The notes beneath the pieces were generated by a model. The model was not told the origin of the DNA. It saw only the letters and a program-made list of their open reading frames with translations, and searched no databases. This document shows, piece after piece, positions 7,243 to 41,812 of a stretch of DNA of 43,766 nt (positions are counted from its first letter, which is position 1; every line of letters starts with the position of its first letter). The position numbers and the translations under genes were made by a program. Source of the DNA: Candidatus Altiarchaeota archaeon (GTDB lineage Archaea; Altiarchaeota; Altiarchaeia; IMC4; QMZM01); NCBI GenBank assembly GCA_030633595.1, contig DAOVSE010000001.1:1-43766 (forward strand). The letters are read 5' to 3'.

Positions 7243-7434
7243 TCATTTTCCTTGTTTCATTCTCCTAAATCTCTCGGCATCTTCTTTAGAATCTAACTCT
7301 AGGGGAAACCCGATATAACCACAGTCCATACATTCATACTTTCCGGATAACATCATCTTAGTTGCGACGATAATCCCCGTTACCTTAATATTCTCACTTC
7401 CGCATCTGGAGCAGACTTTGATTTCTTTTTTCAT
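7243..7434 (-). CDS. small 4-Cys zinc-ribbon protein, paralog B
   Basis: 63 aa with CSRCGS...CMDCGY. About 60 percent identical by eye to the neighbouring 65-aa ORF. Confidence 0.65.
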   Translation of the reverse strand: MKKEIKVCSRCGSENIKVTGIIVATKMMLSGKYECMDCGYIGFPLELDSKEDAERFRRMKQGK

Positions 7435-7505
7435 TTCCCGACACCCCTATGGATTATATTTTGGTTATTTTTGGAATGTAACACCTTTTCTAAAGGGGTT
7501 GCGTA

Positions 7506-7703
7506 TTAGTTCATCTTCCTTTGTTCATCCCCCCTAAATCTCTCAGTATCTTTTCCAGAGTCTAGTTCTAGAGGAAACCCTACATAACCACAGTCCATAC
7601 ATTCATACTTCCCAGGTAATATCGCCACAGTTGTGACGATATGTCCTGTTGCCTTGACATTCCTACTTTCGCATTTGGGGCAGACTTTAACTTTTTTATT
7701 CAT
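7506..7703 (-). CDS. small 4-Cys zinc-ribbon protein, paralog A
   Basis: 65 aa with CPKCES...CMDCGY. Its ATG overlaps the COG1900 stop as ATGA (7700-7703). Confidence 0.65.
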   Translation of the reverse strand: MNKKVKVCPKCESRNVKATGHIVTTVAILPGKYECMDCGYVGFPLELDSGKDTERFRGDEQRKMN

Positions 7704-9821: not shown

Positions 9822-9828
9822 TATATTA

Positions 9829-10200
9829 AAAACAACCTTCAGAAAGGTTGACGCATCGAGCTTTAGAAAAGCTCGGCGCATCAAGCTTTAAAAAACCTTG
9901 ACCAAAAATTTAATCAGGTTTTCCGTCAACACTCAAGCTTTAGAAAAGCTCGGCGCATCAAGCTTTAAAAAACCTTGACCAAAAATTTATGTGAAATTTT
10001 TTCCGTCAACGCTTTTCCCAAAAGGGTTGAGCTTGACCAAAAATCTAACATGGATTTTTTTGATCAACCTTTTTCCTAAAAAGGTTGCATCAGAACGGGT
10101 ATTGTAGGTTTTCCCACAGACTGCAAAGCAGTCATGGGGCTTTGAAAATCTTTGATTTTCAAAATCGCAAGCTCGAACCCACAGAACGCGTTATCGAAGT
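9829..10200. repeat. intergenic stem-loop array containing a 77-nt tandem duplication
   Basis: Hairpins: CAACCTT/AAGGTTG at 9834-9851, CGAGCTTT/AAAGCTCG, TCAAGCTTT..AACCTTGA at 9882-9904, and TTTGAAAATC/GATTTTCAAA near 10142-10164. A 53-nt identical block occurs at 9861-9913 and 9938-9990. CTTGACCAAAAAT occurs three times. Confidence 0.8.
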
Positions 10201-10295
10201 TAACACTCACATACTTCCCAATACGACAAGAAATTTACGAAGTAAATTTGTTGGTTATTATAAAGTACAGCTATACTTTATAATTCAATAAAAAA

Positions 10296-12219: not shown

Positions 12220-12321
12220 CCAACCACCCCCCGTCCTCCGTCAAGGAGGGCGGTCATTTTTATCACATCACAATGTGGTAATTCAGCCAACCACCCCCCG
12301 TCCTCCGTCAAGGAGGGCGGT
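12220..12321. repeat. two copies of a 35-nt GC-rich hairpin unit between convergent genes (terminator-like)
   Basis: CCAACCACCCCCCGTCCTCCGTCAAGGAGGGCGGT occurs at 12220-12254 and 12287-12321. Each holds a 9-bp stem, CCGTCCTCC/GGAGGGCGG, with one wobble. Confidence 0.75.
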
Positions 12322-18814: not shown

Positions 18815-18848
18815 GTCCAGATTTTTAGACTATTATATCTACTTTTCT

Positions 18849-18963
18849 AGGATTAAAAATACATTTTGAATTTTATTTAGTGCTATCGAGCACTGAATGT
18901 GTGAGTATAGCACATTTGCTCAAGCTTTATGAAAGCTTGAAATTACTTTTTCAGGATTAAAAA
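18849..18963. repeat. stem-loop cluster bracketed by the 11-nt direct repeat AGGATTAAAAA
   Basis: Direct repeats at 18849-18859 and 18953-18963. Between them are GTGCT/AGCAC, ATGTG/CACAT and TCAAGCTTT-ATG-AAAGCTTGA (18920-18940). Confidence 0.7.
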
Positions 18964-19313: not shown

Positions 19314-19644
19314 AAGCTTAGTATTAGATTGAATTGCCTAAAAGGTTTGAGCAGAACTTAGTAGTGTGGAATATATCAAATCTGCCCGACCATCCACAAC
19401 CTTAGGGAATCTTGACAATAAAGAAAACAAATGTTTTATATAAAGAACAATTGTTTGTAACTACTCAGGCTACACATGCTCATTCATCTTGAGAAGCTAA
19501 ATATATTTATACTCAACAAAGACGCATATATAGAACAATTAGAAAAGCGTATTGGACAGGGGGGTAGTTACGTTTCAGATAAACTACTATCCAATAGTTG
19601 TTTCTGACTCATCATCCCAATAGGCTTATCAAAGAATCCATGCA

Positions 19645-19980
19645 TCAGGCTTCCATCGACCTCTTAGGATGACCGAATTCGGGCAAAGCAGCAACAGCCT
19701 CTATCTCAGGCTGAATTTCTTTCTCGTACCTTATTGTCTCTTTCACAATCTTGCTTTTTGGATTAAGCTTGTAGAGTTGTGCCTTCCCAAATTTTCTGGT
19801 GGGGATCACAATCCCGAGTCTCTCCAGCTTATTCCACATACCATATAGAGTAGATTCGGACATGCCCGAGAGTCCTGCCAGCTCCTTTTTCGAGTAATCC
19901 AGATTTGGGTGGTCTAAGAGCATATCAAATACCCTGTTAAATGGTGTATCTCCAAAAATCTTTATAAACGCCGACTCCAT
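19645..19980 (-). CDS. winged-helix transcriptional regulator (small, accessory-type)
   Basis: 111 aa. YSKKELAGLSGMSESTLYGMWNKLERLGIVIPTRKFGKAQLYKLN is an HTH plus wing. Confidence 0.55.
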   Translation of the reverse strand: MESAFIKIFGDTPFNRVFDMLLDHPNLDYSKKELAGLSGMSESTLYGMWNKLERLGIVIPTRKFGKAQLYKLNPKSKIVKETIRYEKEIQPEIEAVAALPEFGHPKRSMEA

Positions 19981-20128
19981 TTTGACTGTATAATATTAAG
20001 GTTTCAAACTTAAGATATCTAAATAGTTAGGGTGGGTAGTTACAAAAATTTTATCGGCTAAAAATCTTGAAAACTTTTAAGGGTATATTCTAAAAAATAC
20101 CTAAATACTTTCTAAATAGTAAGGTAAT

Positions 20129-20296
20129 ATGGAAAAAATCAAGGTACTGGGTGGGAAAAGGGTCAGAGTAAGAATTCCCGATAAATTAATAACTACCGAT
20201 GAGTTCATAAGACAAGTAAAACCAGTATTCCAGAAAATAGCAAATAGGTTAACTGAAGACGAATGGAGAAAGATAAAGAGATCTACTGCAGCATAG
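20129..20296 (+). CDS. 55-aa hypothetical ORF (weak AbrB-like GKRVRVRIPDKL motif)
   Basis: ATG preceded by AAGGT. Below the ORF-track length cutoff. Convergent with the PIN-like ORF and overlaps it by 14 nt. Confidence 0.25.
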   Translation: MEKIKVLGGKRVRVRIPDKLITTDEFIRQVKPVFQKIANRLTEDEWRKIKRSTAA

Positions 20297-20720
20297 CTCT
20301 GAGATCGTGATAACTAATTATGTCCGGATAAAATTCTTTTGCTTTTCCCAATATCTCATTATCACCTGTAAGGAATATCAGATTATATTCCTTTGCTATC
20401 ACCACGTGAATCAAATTGTTGATTCTTTTCTTAAATCTCGTAAGATTCGCTAATTCCACGATATCATTACTGATCGTCGGATTCTCTATATAATTCACCA
20501 TTAACTCACTCTCAAAAGCCGCCCATATACGATCTGCCTCACCCTTACTACAATTCCACTCTGTTCTAAGCCCCCTAATGATCTCAGCTTTGGTTAGAGG
20601 AGATATATAGATCTCAAGTCTATCTAGATTATTCCTAAGAAACTCTATAACCCTTGGTATTTCAAAATCCTGATTTCTTCGAGTACACACCAACATCTTC
20701 TTAAAGAAACCATAGATCAT
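20283..20720 (-). CDS. PIN-like domain protein, possibly degenerate
   Basis: 145 aa. SPLTKAEIIRGL and LIHVVIAKEYNLIFLTGDNEI resemble the PIN middle and C-terminal motifs. The expected N-terminal acidic motif lies upstream of the ATG (..HYLIEDGKN..) behind a stop. Confidence 0.4.
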   Translation of the reverse strand: MIYGFFKKMLVCTRRNQDFEIPRVIEFLRNNLDRLEIYISPLTKAEIIRGLRTEWNCSKGEADRIWAAFESELMVNYIENPTISNDIVELANLTRFKKRINNLIHVVIAKEYNLIFLTGDNEILGKAKEFYPDIISYHDLRAMLQ

Positions 20721-20755
20721 GTTTGCATGTAAATATGTATTTTTGCCATCTTCTA

Positions 20756-20950
20756 TCAGATAGTGTTAAACAAAAATATGGAATTAGCATGCCATTCTGG
20801 AAATTGAGTTTGAATGTATTCTGCCAATTTGTGAGAAACGGATCTCTCGTTAACATCGTTTTCAAGTAGAAAAGCATCATTTTTAAACAAAAGTTCAACT
20901 GCGATCCAAACCTTCTTCTCTATTTCTTCCTTTTTATAATCCATAACCAA
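20756..20950 (-). pseudogene. 64-aa ORF, probably the N-terminal fragment of a larger (nuclease-like?) gene
   Basis: NERSVSHKLAEYIQTQFPEW resembles the start of a nuclease-type core, but the frame stops shortly after and no simple frameshift extends it. Confidence 0.25.
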
Positions 20951-20968
20951 TACCCTCCAAATTCTTTT

Positions 20969-22363
20969 TTATTCCCTCACAACCTCCCACTTACCGCCTT
21001 TATCCGGTCCAATTCTTTTCAATAAACCCCTTTTCTTTAGATTGTTGATACTGAACTTAATGCCGTCTTCAGTAATTCCAATAATCTCAGCCAGCTCTTT
21101 TCGTGTAATCCCGGGCTTGTCTTTTACCAATTCCAATATTTTCTGGGTAGTTTTCTGGGTAGTTTTCTGGGTAGTTTTTAGGCTATCAAAATAGAATTCA
21201 ATCTTATAATAATCTACATCCCCTCCAACTACAGGGGCTTTACTATACTGACTTTTCCACCCTGAAAACATCTTATCAAAACCAGAACCTGCATTCTCGG
21301 CAAGGCCTATTGCTCTAAAGATGCGCGCAAGCACAGGATTCCTGGGCTGTGAAAAATCTTCTTCCATGATTATTTTGAAATCTTTTGGCAATGCCCCCGG
21401 ATTCATGAATTCAATTCTGTTTGTGAAGACCCTTATACGTGGTTTTAATGTGCTGAAATACTCAGAATGCATAAGAAGATTAATTAATGCCTCCCTGATA
21501 GCAACAACCTGAGGCTGGTCTGCTGAAGCAAAACCCATACCTTTTAATTGAAACGGAATATCAATCTTCTTTAGCAACCTTTCAATAATACTAAAATAAA
21601 ATCTGAAGAGATTCTCCTCTTCACTTAACCTGTAAGTGTATCGCGTAGGTGCATCAGAATAAGATACCCCAGGTATCTCAAGATAATCTATTCTAAAATC
21701 AGTTATAATCTTATTTATACCGTCTTCCCTTCCGAAGAAAAGCATCCCACCAACAGTAACTTTGTCATCAATCAGGACATGCAGCTTCTTTAACAATTCT
21801 TTTGCAGTGAGCTTATTATATCTATGATCCGGATTGAATTTTTTCATATATGCCCTGTAATCTTCAACAGTCTTTTGGTCAAGGCTTTCGAATGTGAATG
21901 CTGTTAATTCCTTATCTTTTGACGAGAATGCCTGCTCTCGAAACATGGCATCTATTTCTTCCTGCGTTGCTCTTTGATCTCCGCTTCCCGTCCTTATGAA
22001 TGTATTCTTTGGATTATTATAAAACACCGGTTTCTTTTCAGCAAAGGGTATATAAAAGGCAAGAACAGTTTTTTTGTCAAAAACATATTTTTTACAGACA
22101 ACATTTATTCTCTTATTAAATTTATTGCCGTTTCTTAAGACAGTAGTAAAGTCCTCCGCTAGTTTTTCAGGATTTCTTACACCTGAGATATCATATTTTC
22201 TTCCTGCCTTTTTAACGCCAAAAATAATCCACCCACCCGCAGTATTAGAAAAAGCACTAACAGTTTCCCAGCTGTTTTTTGGAATCTCTGATTTAGCTTC
22301 TTTAACCTCAAAATCTTCCCATTCAATATCTTCAAGCTTTTTTATTAATTCCCCTTTATCCAT
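20969..22363 (-). CDS. COG2865-type protein: Schlafen/AlbA_2 domain + HATPase_c_4-like domain + C-terminal wHTH
   Basis: 464 aa with EDFEVKEAKSEIPKNSWETVSAFSNTAGGWIIFGV at the N-terminus, then ALINLLMHSEY, RNPVLARIFRAIGLAENAGSGFDKM, and a C-terminal HTH (ITRKELAEIIGITEDGIKFSINNLKKRGLL). Confidence 0.8.
   Translation of the reverse strand: MDKGELIKKLEDIEWEDFEVKEAKSEIPKNSWETVSAFSNTAGGWIIFGVKKAGRKYDISGVRNPEKLAEDFTTVLRNGNKFNKRINVVCKKYVFDKKTVLAFYIPFAEKKPVFYNNPKNTFIRTGSGDQRATQEEIDAMFREQAFSSKDKELTAFTFESLDQKTVEDYRAYMKKFNPDHRYNKLTAKELLKKLHVLIDDKVTVGGMLFFGREDGINKIITDFRIDYLEIPGVSYSDAPTRYTYRLSEEENLFRFYFSIIERLLKKIDIPFQLKGMGFASADQPQVVAIREALINLLMHSEYFSTLKPRIRVFTNRIEFMNPGALPKDFKIIMEEDFSQPRNPVLARIFRAIGLAENAGSGFDKMFSGWKSQYSKAPVVGGDVDYYKIEFYFDSLKTTQKTTQKTTQKILELVKDKPGITRKELAEIIGITEDGIKFSINNLKKRGLLKRIGPDKGGKWEVVRE
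21141..21176 (-). repeat. perfect 3 x 12-nt in-frame tandem repeat (encodes TTQK x3) in the COG2865 linker
   Basis: TTCTGGGTAGTT occurs three times with no mismatch. Confidence 0.9.
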
Positions 22364-22951
22364 ATTTTGAACCCCACACCCGCCAAATTATTCTTTATCT
22401 CTTCATTCAAGCTCTGCCCTTCTTTCATCTGTTCAGAAAGCTCAGACGTTAATTTTCTCATCTTCTCATCAAAGGGTATGCCGTCGTCTTCCTCTTCTTC
22501 CATGCCGACATATCGTCCGGGGGTTAATATGTGATTGTGTCTTCTGATCTCATCTAATTTGGCGGATTCTATCTGGTAGAAGTCTCTGGCTTCTTGTCTC
22601 TCTATTTTTAGCAGGAGCCGATAGTGTGTCCACGTTAATTTGTCACTCAGTGCATGACTTTTTGGGTATGTCTGGTAGAATTGCCTCATGTATCTTAGGT
22701 TGGTTTCTGTGAATCCTCTGCCGTAGTCTCTGGTTAGTCTCTCTGACAGTTGTTTTATCAGGTTTCGCCCGTATCTGGCTCTTTCCCCGGCCTTTTTGTT
22801 CTTCTTCGATTATTATTCTGCCTATGTTCCAGTAGGCTTCTGTCATGGTGGAGTTGACTGCCCGGTAGGCTGTTGTGCGCGCCTTCTCCAGGACCAGCTT
22901 TATGTTCTCGTATGCGTTCTCCATTCTCTCCGGGTTTTCTCCTTCGGTCAT
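22345..22951 (-). pseudogene. frameshifted DUF1016 (YhcG-like) N-terminal fragment fused to the C-terminal tail of a type I R-M methylase (HsdM)
   Basis: ORF 22643-22951 reads ..AYRAVNSTMTEAYWNIGRIIIEEEQKG. The reading continues in another frame as GERARYGRNLIKQLSERLTRDYGRGFTETNLRYMRQFYQTYP...FYQIES, with the shift in the CCCCGGCC run at 22785-22792. It then switches to KLDEIRRHNHILTPGRYVGMEEEEDDGIPFDEKMRKLTSEL...NLAGVGF, which is typical of an HsdM C-terminus. Confidence 0.6.
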
Positions 22952-23096
22952 CTTATTAATACATTAGAATTCTATAAATAAGTATAAACCCGGAAACCAT
23001 AGACATGTCAGTAGAATGATTATCTCTTTCCTTTATTGGCATGTCCCAGAAGGGGCTTTTTGCATATAATCTCTGCAAGAGAAACAGATAAAACAA

Positions 23097-23202
23097 GATG
23101 CCGTGGGATTCGAACGGCAGTGGCGGTGTTCTGGGTTTGGATATGGTGGGAGTATAGGAGGGCGAGATAGACGGAAAACTGTCTATTTATTGGGCTGATT
23201 CT
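23097..23202 (+). repeat. dispersed roughly 110-120-nt repeat, copy A (pairs with 42265-42387)
   Basis: Shares GATGC..GGATTCGAA...AGTGGC.GTG...ATAGAC.GAAA...TATTTATTGGG.TGATT.CT with copy B, same strand. Confidence 0.6.
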
Positions 23203-23336
23203 ATAGATGAATTCAATGAGACATAGAATCTGGAGGTAGAAAAATTAATTAATACCCTGAGCAAGAAGTCTTAAAGAAATTACTTAAATCTCTCTAAAAT
23301 TTAATAGTGAAAGCCTAAATTATTAGAACTAAGAAA

Positions 23337-33384: not shown

Positions 33385-33530
33385 CATATGTATGTATAGA
33401 ATGCGGAGCAGAGGTAGATTATGAGTATCTGACAAAGCACAGGCTGAAGTGCACAAAGTGTAAGGAGAAGAGATCAAACATATGGATCAAGAAAAGACCT
33501 CCAATAGCTAAAACAGTAATTGCAAGATGA
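33381..33530 (+). CDS. rpoP: DNA-directed RNA polymerase subunit P (Rpo12)
   Basis: 49 aa, MTYVCIECGAEVDYEYLTKHRLKCTKCKEKRSNIWIKKRPP..., below the ORF-track cutoff. ATGA overlaps at both ends. Confidence 0.75.
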   Translation: MTYVCIECGAEVDYEYLTKHRLKCTKCKEKRSNIWIKKRPPIAKTVIAR

Positions 33531-33787
33531 ATCTTCTGGAGGTAACGATTAATGTTCCATCCGAGGTAGCGGACGTCTGTTGTAGGTCCATTGAGATGGA
33601 GACGAAGAGCGACGCATTACGCAGATCAGAAATAACCTTGGATCGTGATGGGAACTTCATGAATCTAAAGATCAGGGCCAGGGACCTTACAGCGCTTCGG
33701 GGATCCATGAATACCTATCTCAGATGGATTGCAATGTGTTTAAATCTAACAAAAACAACCTTCAGAAAGGTTGATGTGGCCGACTAA
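33527..33787 (+). CDS. pcc1: KEOPS complex subunit Pcc1 (C-terminus now encoded by the inserted stem-loop element)
   Basis: 86 aa with LKIRARDLTALRGSMNTYLRWIAMCLN, typical of Pcc1/CTAG. The last 11 codons run into the hairpin array. Confidence 0.7.
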   Translation: MNLLEVTINVPSEVADVCCRSIEMETKSDALRRSEITLDRDGNFMNLKIRARDLTALRGSMNTYLRWIAMCLNLTKTTFRKVDVAD

Positions 33788-33931
33788 AGTCGGATCGTTC
33801 GAGCCAAAGGCTCGAAGATTCCAAAACTCCAAAGGAGTTTTGAGAACGCACTCAAGACCGAAGGTCTTGCGTGCCATCAGAACGAGGTTATGGGGTCACA
33901 GACCGCATTATAGAATCTCAACTAACAAAAA
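33746..33931. mobile_element. 166-nt stem-loop array bracketed by the 10-nt direct repeat CTAACAAAAA (putative insertion)
   Basis: Direct repeats at 33746-33755 and 33922-33931. Five consecutive hairpins lie between 33756 and 33874. The left 24 nt are identical to 9829-9852. Confidence 0.65.
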
Positions 33932-33938
33932 GATTAAA

Positions 33939-34292
33939 ATGAATATACCAAAACAGATTCAGGACAAAATAAACCAGTTTCAAGGACTGCAGAATCAGCT
34001 ACAAGCAATAGTTTTGCAAAAACAACAATTAGTTTTGCAATCTACAGACATCGATAATGCCCTTATGGCGTTGGAAAAAATTGATAAAGAGAGGATCTAT
34101 GAAGCTACTGGACCATTATTGATCGAGACAAATAAACCCACGAGCGAAAAGAAACTTCAGGAAAATAAGGATGTTATAAATGCCAGAATTCAGATGCTTG
34201 AAAAACAGGAGAAAAAATTGACCGAAAAATTGAAGGAACTAAGTACGGAAATTCAGGCAGATCTGCAGGGCGGTGGTATCACGGGCGGTTAA
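33939..34292 (+). CDS. pfdB: prefoldin beta subunit
   Basis: The start is moved to the ATG at 33939 (MNIPKQIQDKINQFQGLQNQLQ...). The ORF-track N-terminal extension reads through the hairpin array. Confidence 0.85.
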   Translation: MNIPKQIQDKINQFQGLQNQLQAIVLQKQQLVLQSTDIDNALMALEKIDKERIYEATGPLLIETNKPTSEKKLQENKDVINARIQMLEKQEKKLTEKLKELSTEIQADLQGGGITGG

Positions 34293-34332
34293 TTCAGCGA
34301 GATTTATCCATTGAATCCCATATCTTAATGTT

Positions 34333-34388
34333 CAGATGATGATACCGACCCAGGCTGAATAGGGATGACAAGGGTAGCTGCTGATGGA
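34333..34388 (+). ncRNA. candidate C/D box sRNA (2'-O-methylation guide)
   Basis: C box ATGATGA at 34336-34342, then a 12-nt spacer, D' CTGA at 34355-34358, C'-like GGGATGA at 34362-34368, another 12-nt spacer, and D CTGA at 34381-34384. Confidence 0.55.
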
Positions 34389-34587
34389 CTTGAACTTACA
34401 CTGTAAGTTCACACCAAGGTGCGGCATGCGCTCCCTTCGGTCGCTTAGCCACACTGAATGAGATGATTTTTTATTGAACTGTCACACCAGTTCACATGCG
34501 TGTACTATCTTGTTGAATTCACGGAGTGAATTCCTTTCTTTTGGTCAAGGTTTTCTTTTGTAAAGAAAAGCTTGACTGCTGATGGAC
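34378..34587. repeat. 186-nt stem-loop array bracketed by the 12-nt direct repeat CTGCTGATGGAC
   Basis: Direct repeats at 34378-34389 and 34576-34587. Hairpins at 34392-34410, 34476-34493, 34515-34533 and 34546-34574. Confidence 0.7.
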
Positions 34588-41387: not shown

Positions 41388-41567
41388 GGGCCCGTGGCTC
41401 AGCATGGTTAGAGCGCTCGACTGATAATCCCTTACAGTGGCTCACAGTCACCGGGCTAATTGCCCCTTTGTGTGCTAGTGTACTGCGTTCAGGATCATTC
41501 CCTTGGGGGTGGTTCAATAACGGGATCATAAATCGAGAAGTCCTGAGTTCAAATCTCAGCGGGCCCA
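41388..41567 (+). tRNA. tRNA-Ile (anticodon GAU, 41423-41425) with a 105-nt intron at the canonical 37/38 position (about 41427-41531)
   Basis: Acceptor GGGCCCG/CGGGCCC, D arm GCTC..GAGC, anticodon stem CTCGA/TCGAG, loop CTGATAA, T arm CTGAG-TTCAAAT-CTCAG, discriminator A, and no encoded CCA. The intron ends can form helix-bulge-helix (TGAT/ATCA flanked by CCC/GGG). Confidence 0.85.
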
Positions 41568-41812
41568 ACGAACCCCTTTCTTTACAAAAGAAGGGTGTTT
41601 ATCCCCCAAGAAAGGAATCTGCTTCGGAAATTCAACAAAGAATTATCCTGTGTCGTCGAGCGTTAGCGAAGACGGCACAAAGCGTGAACCGATTTCGCGG
41701 TTCAAAGAAAGGAATCTGCTTCGCAGATTCAACAATTCCTAAATTTCCGTTAAGAATGTATCTTGAGTGTTCCGACGGTAGTCAATCACATTCGCTTCGC
41801 GAATTCAACAGA
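41568..41812. repeat. stem-loop array with a 97-nt-spaced internal duplication, between tRNA-Ile and the RNase P Pop5 gene
   Basis: AAGAAAGGAATCTGCTTCG occurs at 41608-41626 and 41705-41723. Hairpins: GAATCTGC-TTC-GCAGATTC at 41712-41730, GAACCG..CGGTTC at 41686-41703, and ATTCGC-TTC-GCGAAT at 41790-41804. TTTCTTTACAAAAGAA is shared in reverse with 34553-34568. Confidence 0.75.

Follow-up and report, generated by a model that had tools for sequence, protein, structure and literature searches.

The window analysed here is the whole 43,766-nucleotide (nt) stretch of contig DAOVSE010000001.1 (assembly GCA_030633595.1, forward strand) from a Candidatus Altiarchaeota archaeon, a member of a phylum known from metagenomes only. 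It contains a string of co-oriented genes for L37ae, RpoP, Pcc1 (a KEOPS subunit) and prefoldin beta (pfdB). At the junction of the last two genes, pcc1 and pfdB, lies a small non-coding element rich in hairpins, which we call copy B (33754 to ~33921).

The pcc1-pfdB junction

L37ae, Pcc1 and prefoldin beta are all above the curated cut-offs of their families, and the 49-amino-acid (aa) zinc-ribbon open reading frame (ORF) read as RpoP has E = 1.5e-8, under its family cut-off. Both upstream junctions of the operon are ATGA overlaps (33381-84 and 33527-30), which had been pointed out in an earlier note on this DNA and are real. The pcc1 gene occupies 33527-33787 (+) and encodes 86 aa with the C-terminus ...NLTKTTFRKVDVAD, followed by the stop. 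Its last 10 codons and the TAA stop (33756-33787) are all element-encoded and give the tail TTFRKVDVAD, with the stop itself (33785-33787) at the stem/loop boundary of the second hairpin. The pfdB gene (33939-34292, +) is intact, and its ATG lies 151 nt past the pcc1 stop. Both effects proposed earlier, the codons added to Pcc1 (ten residues plus stop) and the uncoupling of pfdB, hold.

The features of the junction, with the module names of the family described below, are the following:

33746-33755, + strand: left direct repeat CTAACAAAAA, pcc1 codons L-T-K plus A-run
33754-33774, + strand: family head AACAACCTTCAGAAAGGTTGA, exact match, identical at 9831-9851
33756-33773, + strand: hairpin 1, CAACCTT/AAGGTTG, 7-bp perfect stem with CAGA loop
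33775-33874, + strand: slot-1 array of four hairpins (hairpins 2-5)
33780-33793, + strand: hairpin 2, CCGACT/AGTCGG, 6-bp perfect stem
33798-33816, + strand: hairpin 3, TTCGAGCC/GGCTCGAA, 8-bp perfect stem
33822-33842, + strand: hairpin 4, CAAAACTCC/GGAGTTTTG, 9-bp perfect stem
33848-33874, + strand: hairpin 5, 12-bp stem with a single T.C mismatch
33875-33886, + strand: CATCA box CATCAGAACGAG, a conserved module, with the other window copy at 10088-10099
33887-33913, + strand: degenerate platform hairpin (GGTC ACA GACC) and second box CAGACCGCATTATAG, where the element is truncated
33914-33921, + strand: AATCTCAA, filler or a piece of a possibly longer, imperfect duplication (left AATCTAACAAAAA, from 33743, versus right AATCT[CAACT]AACAAAAA)
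33922-33931, + strand: right direct repeat CTAACAAAAA, then GATTAAAATG, which is the ancestral pcc1 end (GAT TAA in relatives) plus the pfdB start

The decamer, hairpin and gene coordinates given earlier were all correct. The two CTAACAAAAA copies are 166 nt apart, and four of the five hairpins between them are perfect, the fifth having one mismatch; loops are of 2-4 nt. In terms of stability, 33740-33940 folds at -73.1 kcal/mol, compared with -39.3 +/- 3.9 for dinucleotide shuffles (z = -8.7), and none of 200 shuffles folded as well. The window has 78 short perfect hairpins, five of them within 120 nt here.

We compared this locus with loci from five lineages (L001; L002-4/L044; L005-6/L045; L007/8/10; L009). 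Only five further 90%-identity clusters of Pcc1 are present in the protein collection, and the NCBI names of two are those of Candidatus Altiarchaeales metagenome-assembled genomes (MAGs). According to the earlier note, a long hairpin-free spacer in close relatives, or Pcc1 orthologues naturally ending in a TTFRKVD-like tail, would speak against an insertion. Neither was found. At every locus (L001-L010, L044 and L045) a single nt separates the pcc1 stop from the pfdB ATG, with no further spacer, and the Pcc1 orthologues compared end in NLTKD, NLTKED, NLTED or NLTKG, none of them with a TTFRKVD-like tail.

In the DNA alignment, the surplus of the window (175-177 nt) is one gap with the decamer copies at its edges. 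Against the syntenic L044 locus, blastn stops at window position 33754 and restarts at 33930. Both decamer copies end exactly at the edges of the segment without counterpart in relatives, with a chance of about 1e-5 by a composition-based estimate, and the flanking decamer is judged meaningful because of this coincidence and not because of the repeat itself. The insertion point is at or inside the A-run of the left copy. Since five lineages across the available diversity are empty, an insertion in the window's lineage is supported as the parsimonious direction. On sequence comparison, we regard insertion with a target duplication (at least 10 nt), as proposed earlier, and membership of a multi-copy family as established.

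As for the allele before insertion, excision of 176 nt in silico leaves five A residues (A5), a Pcc1 ending in NLTKRLK-stop, and the ATGA overlap with pfdB that the earlier note expected to see restored. This overlap is present in no relative. Their junction reads ...AAT TTA ACA AAA GAT TAA n ATG (with g as n in the alignment), that is, A4, a D-stop ending and a 1-nt gap. The window has A5 in both copies of the repeat, and an A5 ancestor in the window's lineage is as possible as an A4 ancestor with one slipped A. The insert-free allele may have had the form ...TGTTTAAATCTAACAAAA(A)GATTAAAATGAATATACC, in which A4 would give NLTKD-stop with the 1-nt gap and A5 would give NLTKRLK-stop with ATGA.

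A separate observation concerns Pcc1 itself, which has 84% aa identity to L001 and 72% to L044. Its neighbours reverse this pattern, with PfdB at 95% to L044 and 73% to L001, and L37ae and the kinase likewise nearer L044. The discordance could be due to rate variation or old recombination. A recombination breakpoint at the insertion junction was rejected, since sliding-window identity places the discordant stretch at 33460-33700, inside pcc1 and off the insertion site.

A family of modular elements in Altiarchaeota

Copies were gathered by exact search for the head (20-mer). We found 33 matches in GTDB species representatives, 27 in contigs titled Altiarchaeota or Altiarchaeales, with several per assembly in some cases (7 in MAG126, 8 in WOR_SM1_SCG and 5 in B80_G16). 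A single Synechococcus match among the representatives looks like chance. JGI metagenomes gave 74 matches, for a public total of 107 loci (~110 copies), almost all on contigs of Altiarchaeota. The head is found in no viral contig of IMG/VR, so no viral origin is seen.

The common architecture starts with the stop of a co-oriented gene and an A-run, then the head hairpin and (T/C)CATCA (conserved head of 21-27 nt, AACAACCTTCAGAAAGGTTGA(TCATCA)). Next comes slot 1, with 0 to many hairpins, and the CATCAsAACGrG box. This is followed by a GGGG/CCCC platform hairpin, whose loop is able to hold more hairpins, and by CAGAACGCATTA (or TAATGC), and finally by a G-poor stretch and the tail TTTrTAATACAATAAAAAA. 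Tail-bearing elements measure 106-464 nt and have no ORF between head and tail. Copies in one genome are mosaics: L011 has slot 1 as L022 and platform contents as L027.

Copy B contains the head, four slot-1 hairpins, the CATCA box (+121 from the head at 0), a decayed platform hairpin and GCATTATAG (GCATTA at +148), without the A-rich tail (TTTATAATACAATAAAAAA). From this module content, with the platform decayed and no tail, it is recognised as a 3'-truncated member. It shares with the family the head, the module order as far as it goes, and the A5 before CAACC next to a co-oriented gene. The stem-loop array, which the earlier note took as the mobile unit, arrived within a composite element with a conserved head, a CATCA box and a remnant platform hairpin. 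The 24-mer at the start of the insert, AAAAACAACCTTCAGAAAGGTTGA, recurs at 9828-9851, and CATCAGAACGrG is present at 10088 and 33875. The stretch with 9828-9851 and 10088 is a full-length copy in the same window:

9828-10295, + strand: sister element A, full length, with head, many hairpins, CATCA box, expanded platform hairpin and tail ATACTTTATAATTCAATAAAAAAA

Element A occupies the gap from the stop of a CBS/HTH gene to the start of an aconitase-family gene. It has a 77-nt internal tandem duplication and is among the largest full-length members.

Most copies follow a gene on the same strand. A same-strand long ORF ends at -40 to +60 nt of the head in 54 of 85 unique copies, compared with 9/85 in the opposite-strand control. 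The upstream consensus T-R-A-AAAA-CAACC (A at -3/-4 in 81-84%, T at -7 in 67%) corresponds to a stop codon plus an A-run. Eight copies have an ORF that enters the head and ends ...NNLQKG-stop at the head's TGA, so that C-terminal remodelling of the kind seen in Pcc1 has come about repeatedly. The 27-nt head AACAACCTTCAGAAAGGTTGATCATCA is conserved over genomes of 41% to 66% GC, and its stem variants stay paired (CAAACTT/AAGTTTG, CAACCTG/CAGGTTG).

This large Altiarchaeota family is described neither in the literature searched, on Altiarchaeota hairpins, repeats or reverse transcriptase and on the head sequence, nor in Rfam. At the gathering threshold, Rfam 15 reports only a tRNA in the whole window, and a permissive scan (E <= 10) of copy B with the neighbouring array Y, of element A and of a canonical copy gave no credible match for the element. 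Neither a tRNA nor a transfer-messenger RNA (tmRNA) was reported by ARAGORN. Covariation analysis of short-form copies (MAFFT/RNAalifold) was uninformative, the alignment not being structure-aware, and loop composition has no strand bias across the family (A 104, T 95).

Heads also occur on contigs with other labels. The head with its ATCATCA extension is found on a 66% GC contig labelled Thermoplasmatota (L030/L066) and on contigs labelled Nanohalarchaeota and "archaeon". In L029, L036, L090 and L030/L066, the intact AT-rich head and ATCATCA are at the 3' ends of housekeeping genes, in genomes that differ greatly in base composition; in L030, the head supplies the NNLQKG-stop C-terminus of a MutS-like ATPase. 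An intact head across such base compositions indicates that the head is strongly constrained or was transferred recently.

Mode of insertion

Among 78 unique copies, 15 have flanking direct repeats of 10 nt or more with an end at the head boundary, versus 1.6% of mismatched flank/element controls, where the longest repeat was 12 nt. The duplications measure 10 nt (copy B), 43 nt (L059), 40 nt (L053 and L042) and ~52 nt (L115). The target duplication claimed earlier is present as a flanking duplication, but not with the fixed length of a transposase product, the family range being 10 to ~52 nt or more. The L059 element is only 65 nt long (head to GAACGC), and its right junction shares ATTA with the target. 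At L115 (- strand, head at oriented 6124) the right-junction microhomology is AATAAAA. Here the element lies 14 codons into a methyltransferase-like gene, and the ~52-nt duplication includes the start codon, with the whole gene regenerated downstream; long duplications can therefore make intragenic insertions survivable. Entry points readable from the right-hand copy are all A-runs (GGAAAA/GG, TATAAAA/AATT, TTGGAAA/AAGG and ACAAAAA/GATT, the slash marking the point). Terminal inverted repeats are found neither in copy B, nor in element A, nor in the family consensus.

Flanking repeats are also borne by two other hairpin arrays in the window, both without a head:

34390-34575, + strand: array Y, no head, at the 3' end of a C/D box small RNA (sRNA), with flanks CTGCTGATGGAC at 34378-89 and 34576-87 (12 nt)
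18840-18963, + strand: third hairpin insert, three small hairpins, with flanks TACTTTTCTAGGATTAAAAA and TACTTTTTCAGGATTAAAAA

The flanks of the third insert are a direct repeat of 20 nt, 18/20 identical and ending in AAAAA, and the same intergenic region is just 58 nt in L044. Array Y is absent in L001 and present or expanded in the other relatives (L007/L008/L009/L005, 3600-4330).

Some loci carry tandem units of flank plus element: three at L099 (8890-9230, 111-nt period), two at L094 (9048-9260, 106-nt period), and others at L013 (783-1400), where the head variant has the compensatory stem change CAAACTT/AAGTTTG. These units in L094, L099 and L013 fit unequal crossing-over on duplications. 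In array Y, the intergenic lengths of L007, L008 and L009, which have the same Pcc1 protein (P0006), are 670, 258 and 427 nt and differ by whole blocks, which suggests unequal crossing-over on repeats. An orthologous hairpin of array Y has two compensatory pair changes, GAATTCAC/GTGAATTC versus GAATTTCC/GGAAATTC.

We consider it likely that 33754 to ~33921 is a truncated copy of a multi-copy, modular, non-coding Altiarchaeota family that inserts by head-first copying at the DNA level. Head-first copying is suggested by a head boundary that falls exactly at an A-run, a far end that varies and duplications of differing length. The copy entered in the window's lineage only, in the same orientation as the operon and at the A-run of the final pcc1 codons. 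From the 3' end of this target A-run the top strand would be extended, with the template copied from the head onward. Copying that stops at variable points would give truncated copies, and rejoining of the new strand to the target upstream of entry would give duplications of variable length. Candidate routes are hairpin single-stranded DNA (ssDNA) handled by an enzyme of the HUH type, or a similar one, that would recognise the head hairpin, or else template switching by a polymerase from one hairpin-rich locus to another. Intrastrand templating would keep the palindromes perfect. Between co-directional genes the element is probably tolerated owing to its stops in two frames and an unstructured A-rich stretch before the next start.

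The DNA level is favoured because wobble mismatches are few, palindromes change in both arms in concert, and head-less arrays are flanked by repeats. Helices selected as RNA are expected to gather G.U pairs, and intrastrand templating ("quasipalindrome correction") yields perfect palindromes with concerted two-arm changes. Among 37 distinct single-mismatch hairpins we counted 1 G.T, 3 A.C and 22 same-base mismatches, and the lack of strand bias in the loops also agrees with the DNA level. In terms of enzymes, no transposase or reverse transcriptase is found among the 18 window ORFs scanned, and 840 kb of loci yielded no ORF-bearing element with a head. As for an autonomous partner, head-to-tail intervals stay within 464 nt, bar one weak match, and outlier copies have housekeeping genes (MutS-like, NMD3-like, CDC48) as their upstream ORFs. 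More tentatively, this may be the first archaeal non-autonomous element of a head-first copy-and-paste kind with a target-primed signature, moved by an HUH/Rep-like or primase-polymerase enzyme working on hairpin ssDNA, or by a reverse transcriptase in the way of an archaeal "SINE". The head would be the recognition site, and one and the same intrastrand template switching would both make the arrays and keep them perfect.

Several points weigh against DNA-level head-first copying, or against parts of the evidence for it. Most family copies have no detectable flanking repeat, and in some cases the long repeats consist of flank and element duplicated together in tandem (L013, L020/L099, L094, L056) and are not simple target duplications. 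The pattern of a precise head and a variable tail is partly ascertainment, the copies being head-selected; a head lies upstream of 29 of 34 tails, and 2-3 copies truly lack one. The wobble test rests on small numbers. No mobilising enzyme is present in the window or linked to any copy, and the fetched loci hold no donor copy of hairpins 3-5 (a 24-mer, TTCGAGCCAAAGGCTCGAAGATTC, also had no match in metagenome contigs). The decamer alone is within chance, the window containing 50 direct repeats that match exactly over 10 nt or more and lie 60-399 nt apart. Finally, the nearest relative is only ~84% identical in protein, and the window has one A more than all relatives.

Retroposition in the manner of short interspersed nuclear elements (SINEs) would account for much of the signature. 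A reverse-strand RNA would end in the head hairpin and a U-run (GUGAUGAUCAACCUUUCUGAAGGUUGUUUU), to which a nicked A-run would anneal and prime reverse transcription; incomplete complementary DNA (cDNA) would cause the tail-side truncation, and a variable second nick the variable duplications. The precise head at A-runs, the variable other end and the duplications of 10 to ~52 nt agree with this, and so does the target-primed signature of the family as a whole, with the caveat that copies were head-selected. Conservation of the head across very different GC (66% in L030) would suit a protein-recognised 3' RNA hairpin, and mosaic copies are as expected of template switching. We nevertheless hold this route to be unlikely. 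No reverse transcriptase lies in the window or beside any copy, and titles and abstracts on Altiarchaeota and reverse transcriptase contain nothing on the topic. Full-length copies hold a putative upstream TATA-like region, which a transcript starting downstream could not copy, the stems have no G.U-type tolerance on either strand, and head-less arrays bear flanking repeats too. Selection at the RNA level, with the insert as a host regulatory or structural module (a pcc1 3'-untranslated-region stabiliser or a pfdB regulator), is very unlikely as the origin. Copies are co-oriented with the upstream gene, stems differ among copies yet pair, array Y has its two compensatory pair changes, and the fold is very stable. 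Against this, the junction is empty in all five related lineages, G.U pairs are not enriched, Rfam has no match even at E <= 10, and the flanking duplications are a mark of insertion. This rival concerns origin and hairpin upkeep, and the insert may well have gained a function afterwards.

A classical transposable element of the miniature inverted-repeat type (MITE), moved by cut-and-paste through a DDE transposase whose gene lies elsewhere, with the decamer as fixed-length duplication, is largely refuted and we give it hardly any weight. Small size, lack of coding capacity, many copies, intergenic position and the 10-nt repeat at copy B are all in its favour. A transposase of this kind is argued against by the absence of inverted repeats and of an ORF and by the variable duplications: the ends, AACAACCTTCAG... 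versus ...GAATCTCAA or ...ACAATAAAAAAA, are not inverted repeats, and duplication lengths are 10, 12, ~20, 40, 43 and ~52 nt. Truncated copies are directly flanked by duplications (L059 and copy B), and there is a strong orientation bias relative to genes. The last alternative, removal or skipping of the insert after transcription by a bulge-helix-bulge (BHB) intron, a ribozyme or ribosomal bypass between the decamers, is improbable in the extreme. Identical take-off and landing sequences do surround a hairpin-rich segment, and bypass between identical sites has parallels in T4 gene 60 and the mitochondrial "byp" elements. The A-rich flanks, however, can pair into no more than a 5-bp AAUCU/AGAUU outer helix, whereas a BHB motif requires a 4-bp central helix with 3-nt bulges. 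Rfam detects neither a ribozyme nor an intron family, known bypass gaps are far shorter than 176 nt, and no stop codon follows the putative take-off site.

Consequences, neighbouring features and known systems

With the element in place, ribosomes would terminate at 33787. We infer that pfdB must still be expressed, because its product is 95% identical to the L044 orthologue. It may share the pcc1 transcript, with initiation on the A-rich 25 nt that precede the AUG and are largely unpaired, or it may be read from a new start. One speculative promoter is a weak TATA-like ATTATAGA located 28 nt upstream of this ATG. As a separate candidate, the forward tail as a downstream promoter was rejected, its TATA-like TTTATAAT being just 11-12 nt from many start codons and too near.

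A mobile non-coding element has entered the L37ae-RpoP-Pcc1-prefoldin beta string, which is among the best conserved gene orders of archaea, where it rewrote a C-terminus and broke the coupling with both genes kept; such an insertion is a natural example of operon remodelling by mobile elements. The signature is outside the standard prokaryotic transposon classes, and a target-primed or HUH-type copy-in, if true, would widen the archaeal mobile DNA repertoire. With reserve, we also raise the possibility of a new class of archaeal mobile element, distinct in mechanism. On the practical side, the arrays break MAG assemblies, give false C-terminal extensions (NNLQKG-stop) and inflate intergenic regions.

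Other features of the window include the C/D box sRNA just downstream of pfdB, conserved in all relatives. It scores as snoPyro_CD in Rfam (26.4 bits, E = 0.004), under gathering, and has a 5-bp terminal stem. A C/D box sRNA was also considered on the reverse strand of the element head (GUGAUGA-N9-CUGA) and rejected, with one C-like and one D-like box only 9 nt apart and the "guide" inside the hairpin; Rfam has no C/D match on the element at E <= 10, in the same scan that caught the true sRNA.

34330-34389, + strand: C/D box sRNA, with boxes C ATGATGA (34336-42), D' CTGA (34355-58), C' GATGA (34364-68) and D CTGA (34381-84)
41388-41567: tRNA gene with an intron of ~109 nt, Rfam 52 bits, missed by ARAGORN; the anticodon loop CTGATAA suggests Ile-GAU
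41568-41810: repeated modules of hairpin plus AACA, with the 19-nt AAGAAAGGAATCTGCTTCG present twice, a separate hairpin family
12220-12321: 35-nt GC-rich hairpin unit CCAACCACCCCCCGTCCTCCGTCAAGGAGGGCGGT present twice, 67 nt apart, in a convergent intergenic region
7260-7700, - strand: tandem duplication at 269-nt spacing with exact repeats of 27 nt and 12 nt, the copies resembling, by eye, paralogous small zinc-ribbon ORFs
19360-23289: 3.9-kb block without counterpart in the syntenic L044 (MazE/PIN there), encoding a PIN protein, a Schlafen/AlbA_2-HATPase_c_4-wHTH protein and a DUF1016 N-terminal domain
22345-22951: the DUF1016 N-terminal domain, split across two overlapping ORFs and probably a frameshifted pseudogene

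Among known systems, the repetitive extragenic palindromes and bacterial interspersed mosaic elements (REP/BIME) of enterobacteria are likewise intergenic arrays of small palindromes, with a modular make-up, a varying number of units and a usual position downstream of co-oriented genes; a REP unit is an imperfect palindrome of 20-40 nt tagged by GTAG or CGTC. Their mobilisation is thought to use ssDNA hairpins and an HUH enzyme, the REP-associated tyrosine transposase (RAYT). The Altiarchaeota element differs in having no GTAG/CGTC tag at the hairpin feet and no RAYT identified (one window examined), and in its heterogeneous palindromes framed by a long head, boxes and a tail, its variable target duplications and its archaeal host. 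Palindrome-associated transposable elements (PATEs) of the IS200/IS605 type also bear hairpins, lack inverted terminal repeats and are strand-specific, being mobilised as ssDNA; they make no target duplication and need a fixed tetra- or pentanucleotide, whereas our element has duplications and an A-run of variable context. BOX elements of Streptococcus pneumoniae consist of A-Bn-C modules. Like them, the family has conserved terminal modules around a variable internal number and is non-coding, intergenic and highly structured, but its internal units are unrelated perfect hairpins and not one boxB, with an A-run target and duplications of 10 to ~52 nt.

As for the effect on proteins, the Rickettsia palindromic elements and the coding palindromic repeats of Methanocaldococcus jannaschii insert in frame inside ORFs. 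These small palindromic mobile repeats also add peptide segments without destroying the gene, whereas the Altiarchaeota family lands at or near the 3' end and brings its own stop (NNLQKG-stop or TTFRKVDVAD-stop). Correia/NEMIS elements of Neisseria affect both the expression of operons and the processing of RNA, and they carry terminal inverted repeats and make a TA duplication. The element resembles them in sitting between co-transcribed genes, but has neither the inverted repeats nor the TA duplication.

In terms of the insertion signature, SINEs, which are mobilised by target-primed reverse transcription, share the exact end at a homopolymer, the truncated other end, the variable duplication and the lack of inverted repeats and ORF. 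Our element differs from them in having no known partner reverse transcriptase, no sign of an RNA intermediate and no RNA-type wobble in its stems. Replitron-1, a copy-and-paste transposon with an HUH Rep, inserts in a specific orientation directly after a short target, with a precise left and a fuzzy right end, variable duplications and a terminal hairpin (PMC10288648). All of these traits are shared with the element family. Replitron-1 is eukaryotic, autonomous and encodes its Rep, and its right ends are parental read-through, versus truncations here. The hairpin at the initiating end, the variable duplications and the fuzzy far end fit an HUH Rep, and no Rep gene turned up in the genomes, which were partly searched. 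Overall, in its working the element appears closest to REP/BIME and BOX, in its protein effect to the Rickettsia and M. jannaschii repeats, in its operon effect to Correia, and in its insertion signature to SINEs and Replitron-1.

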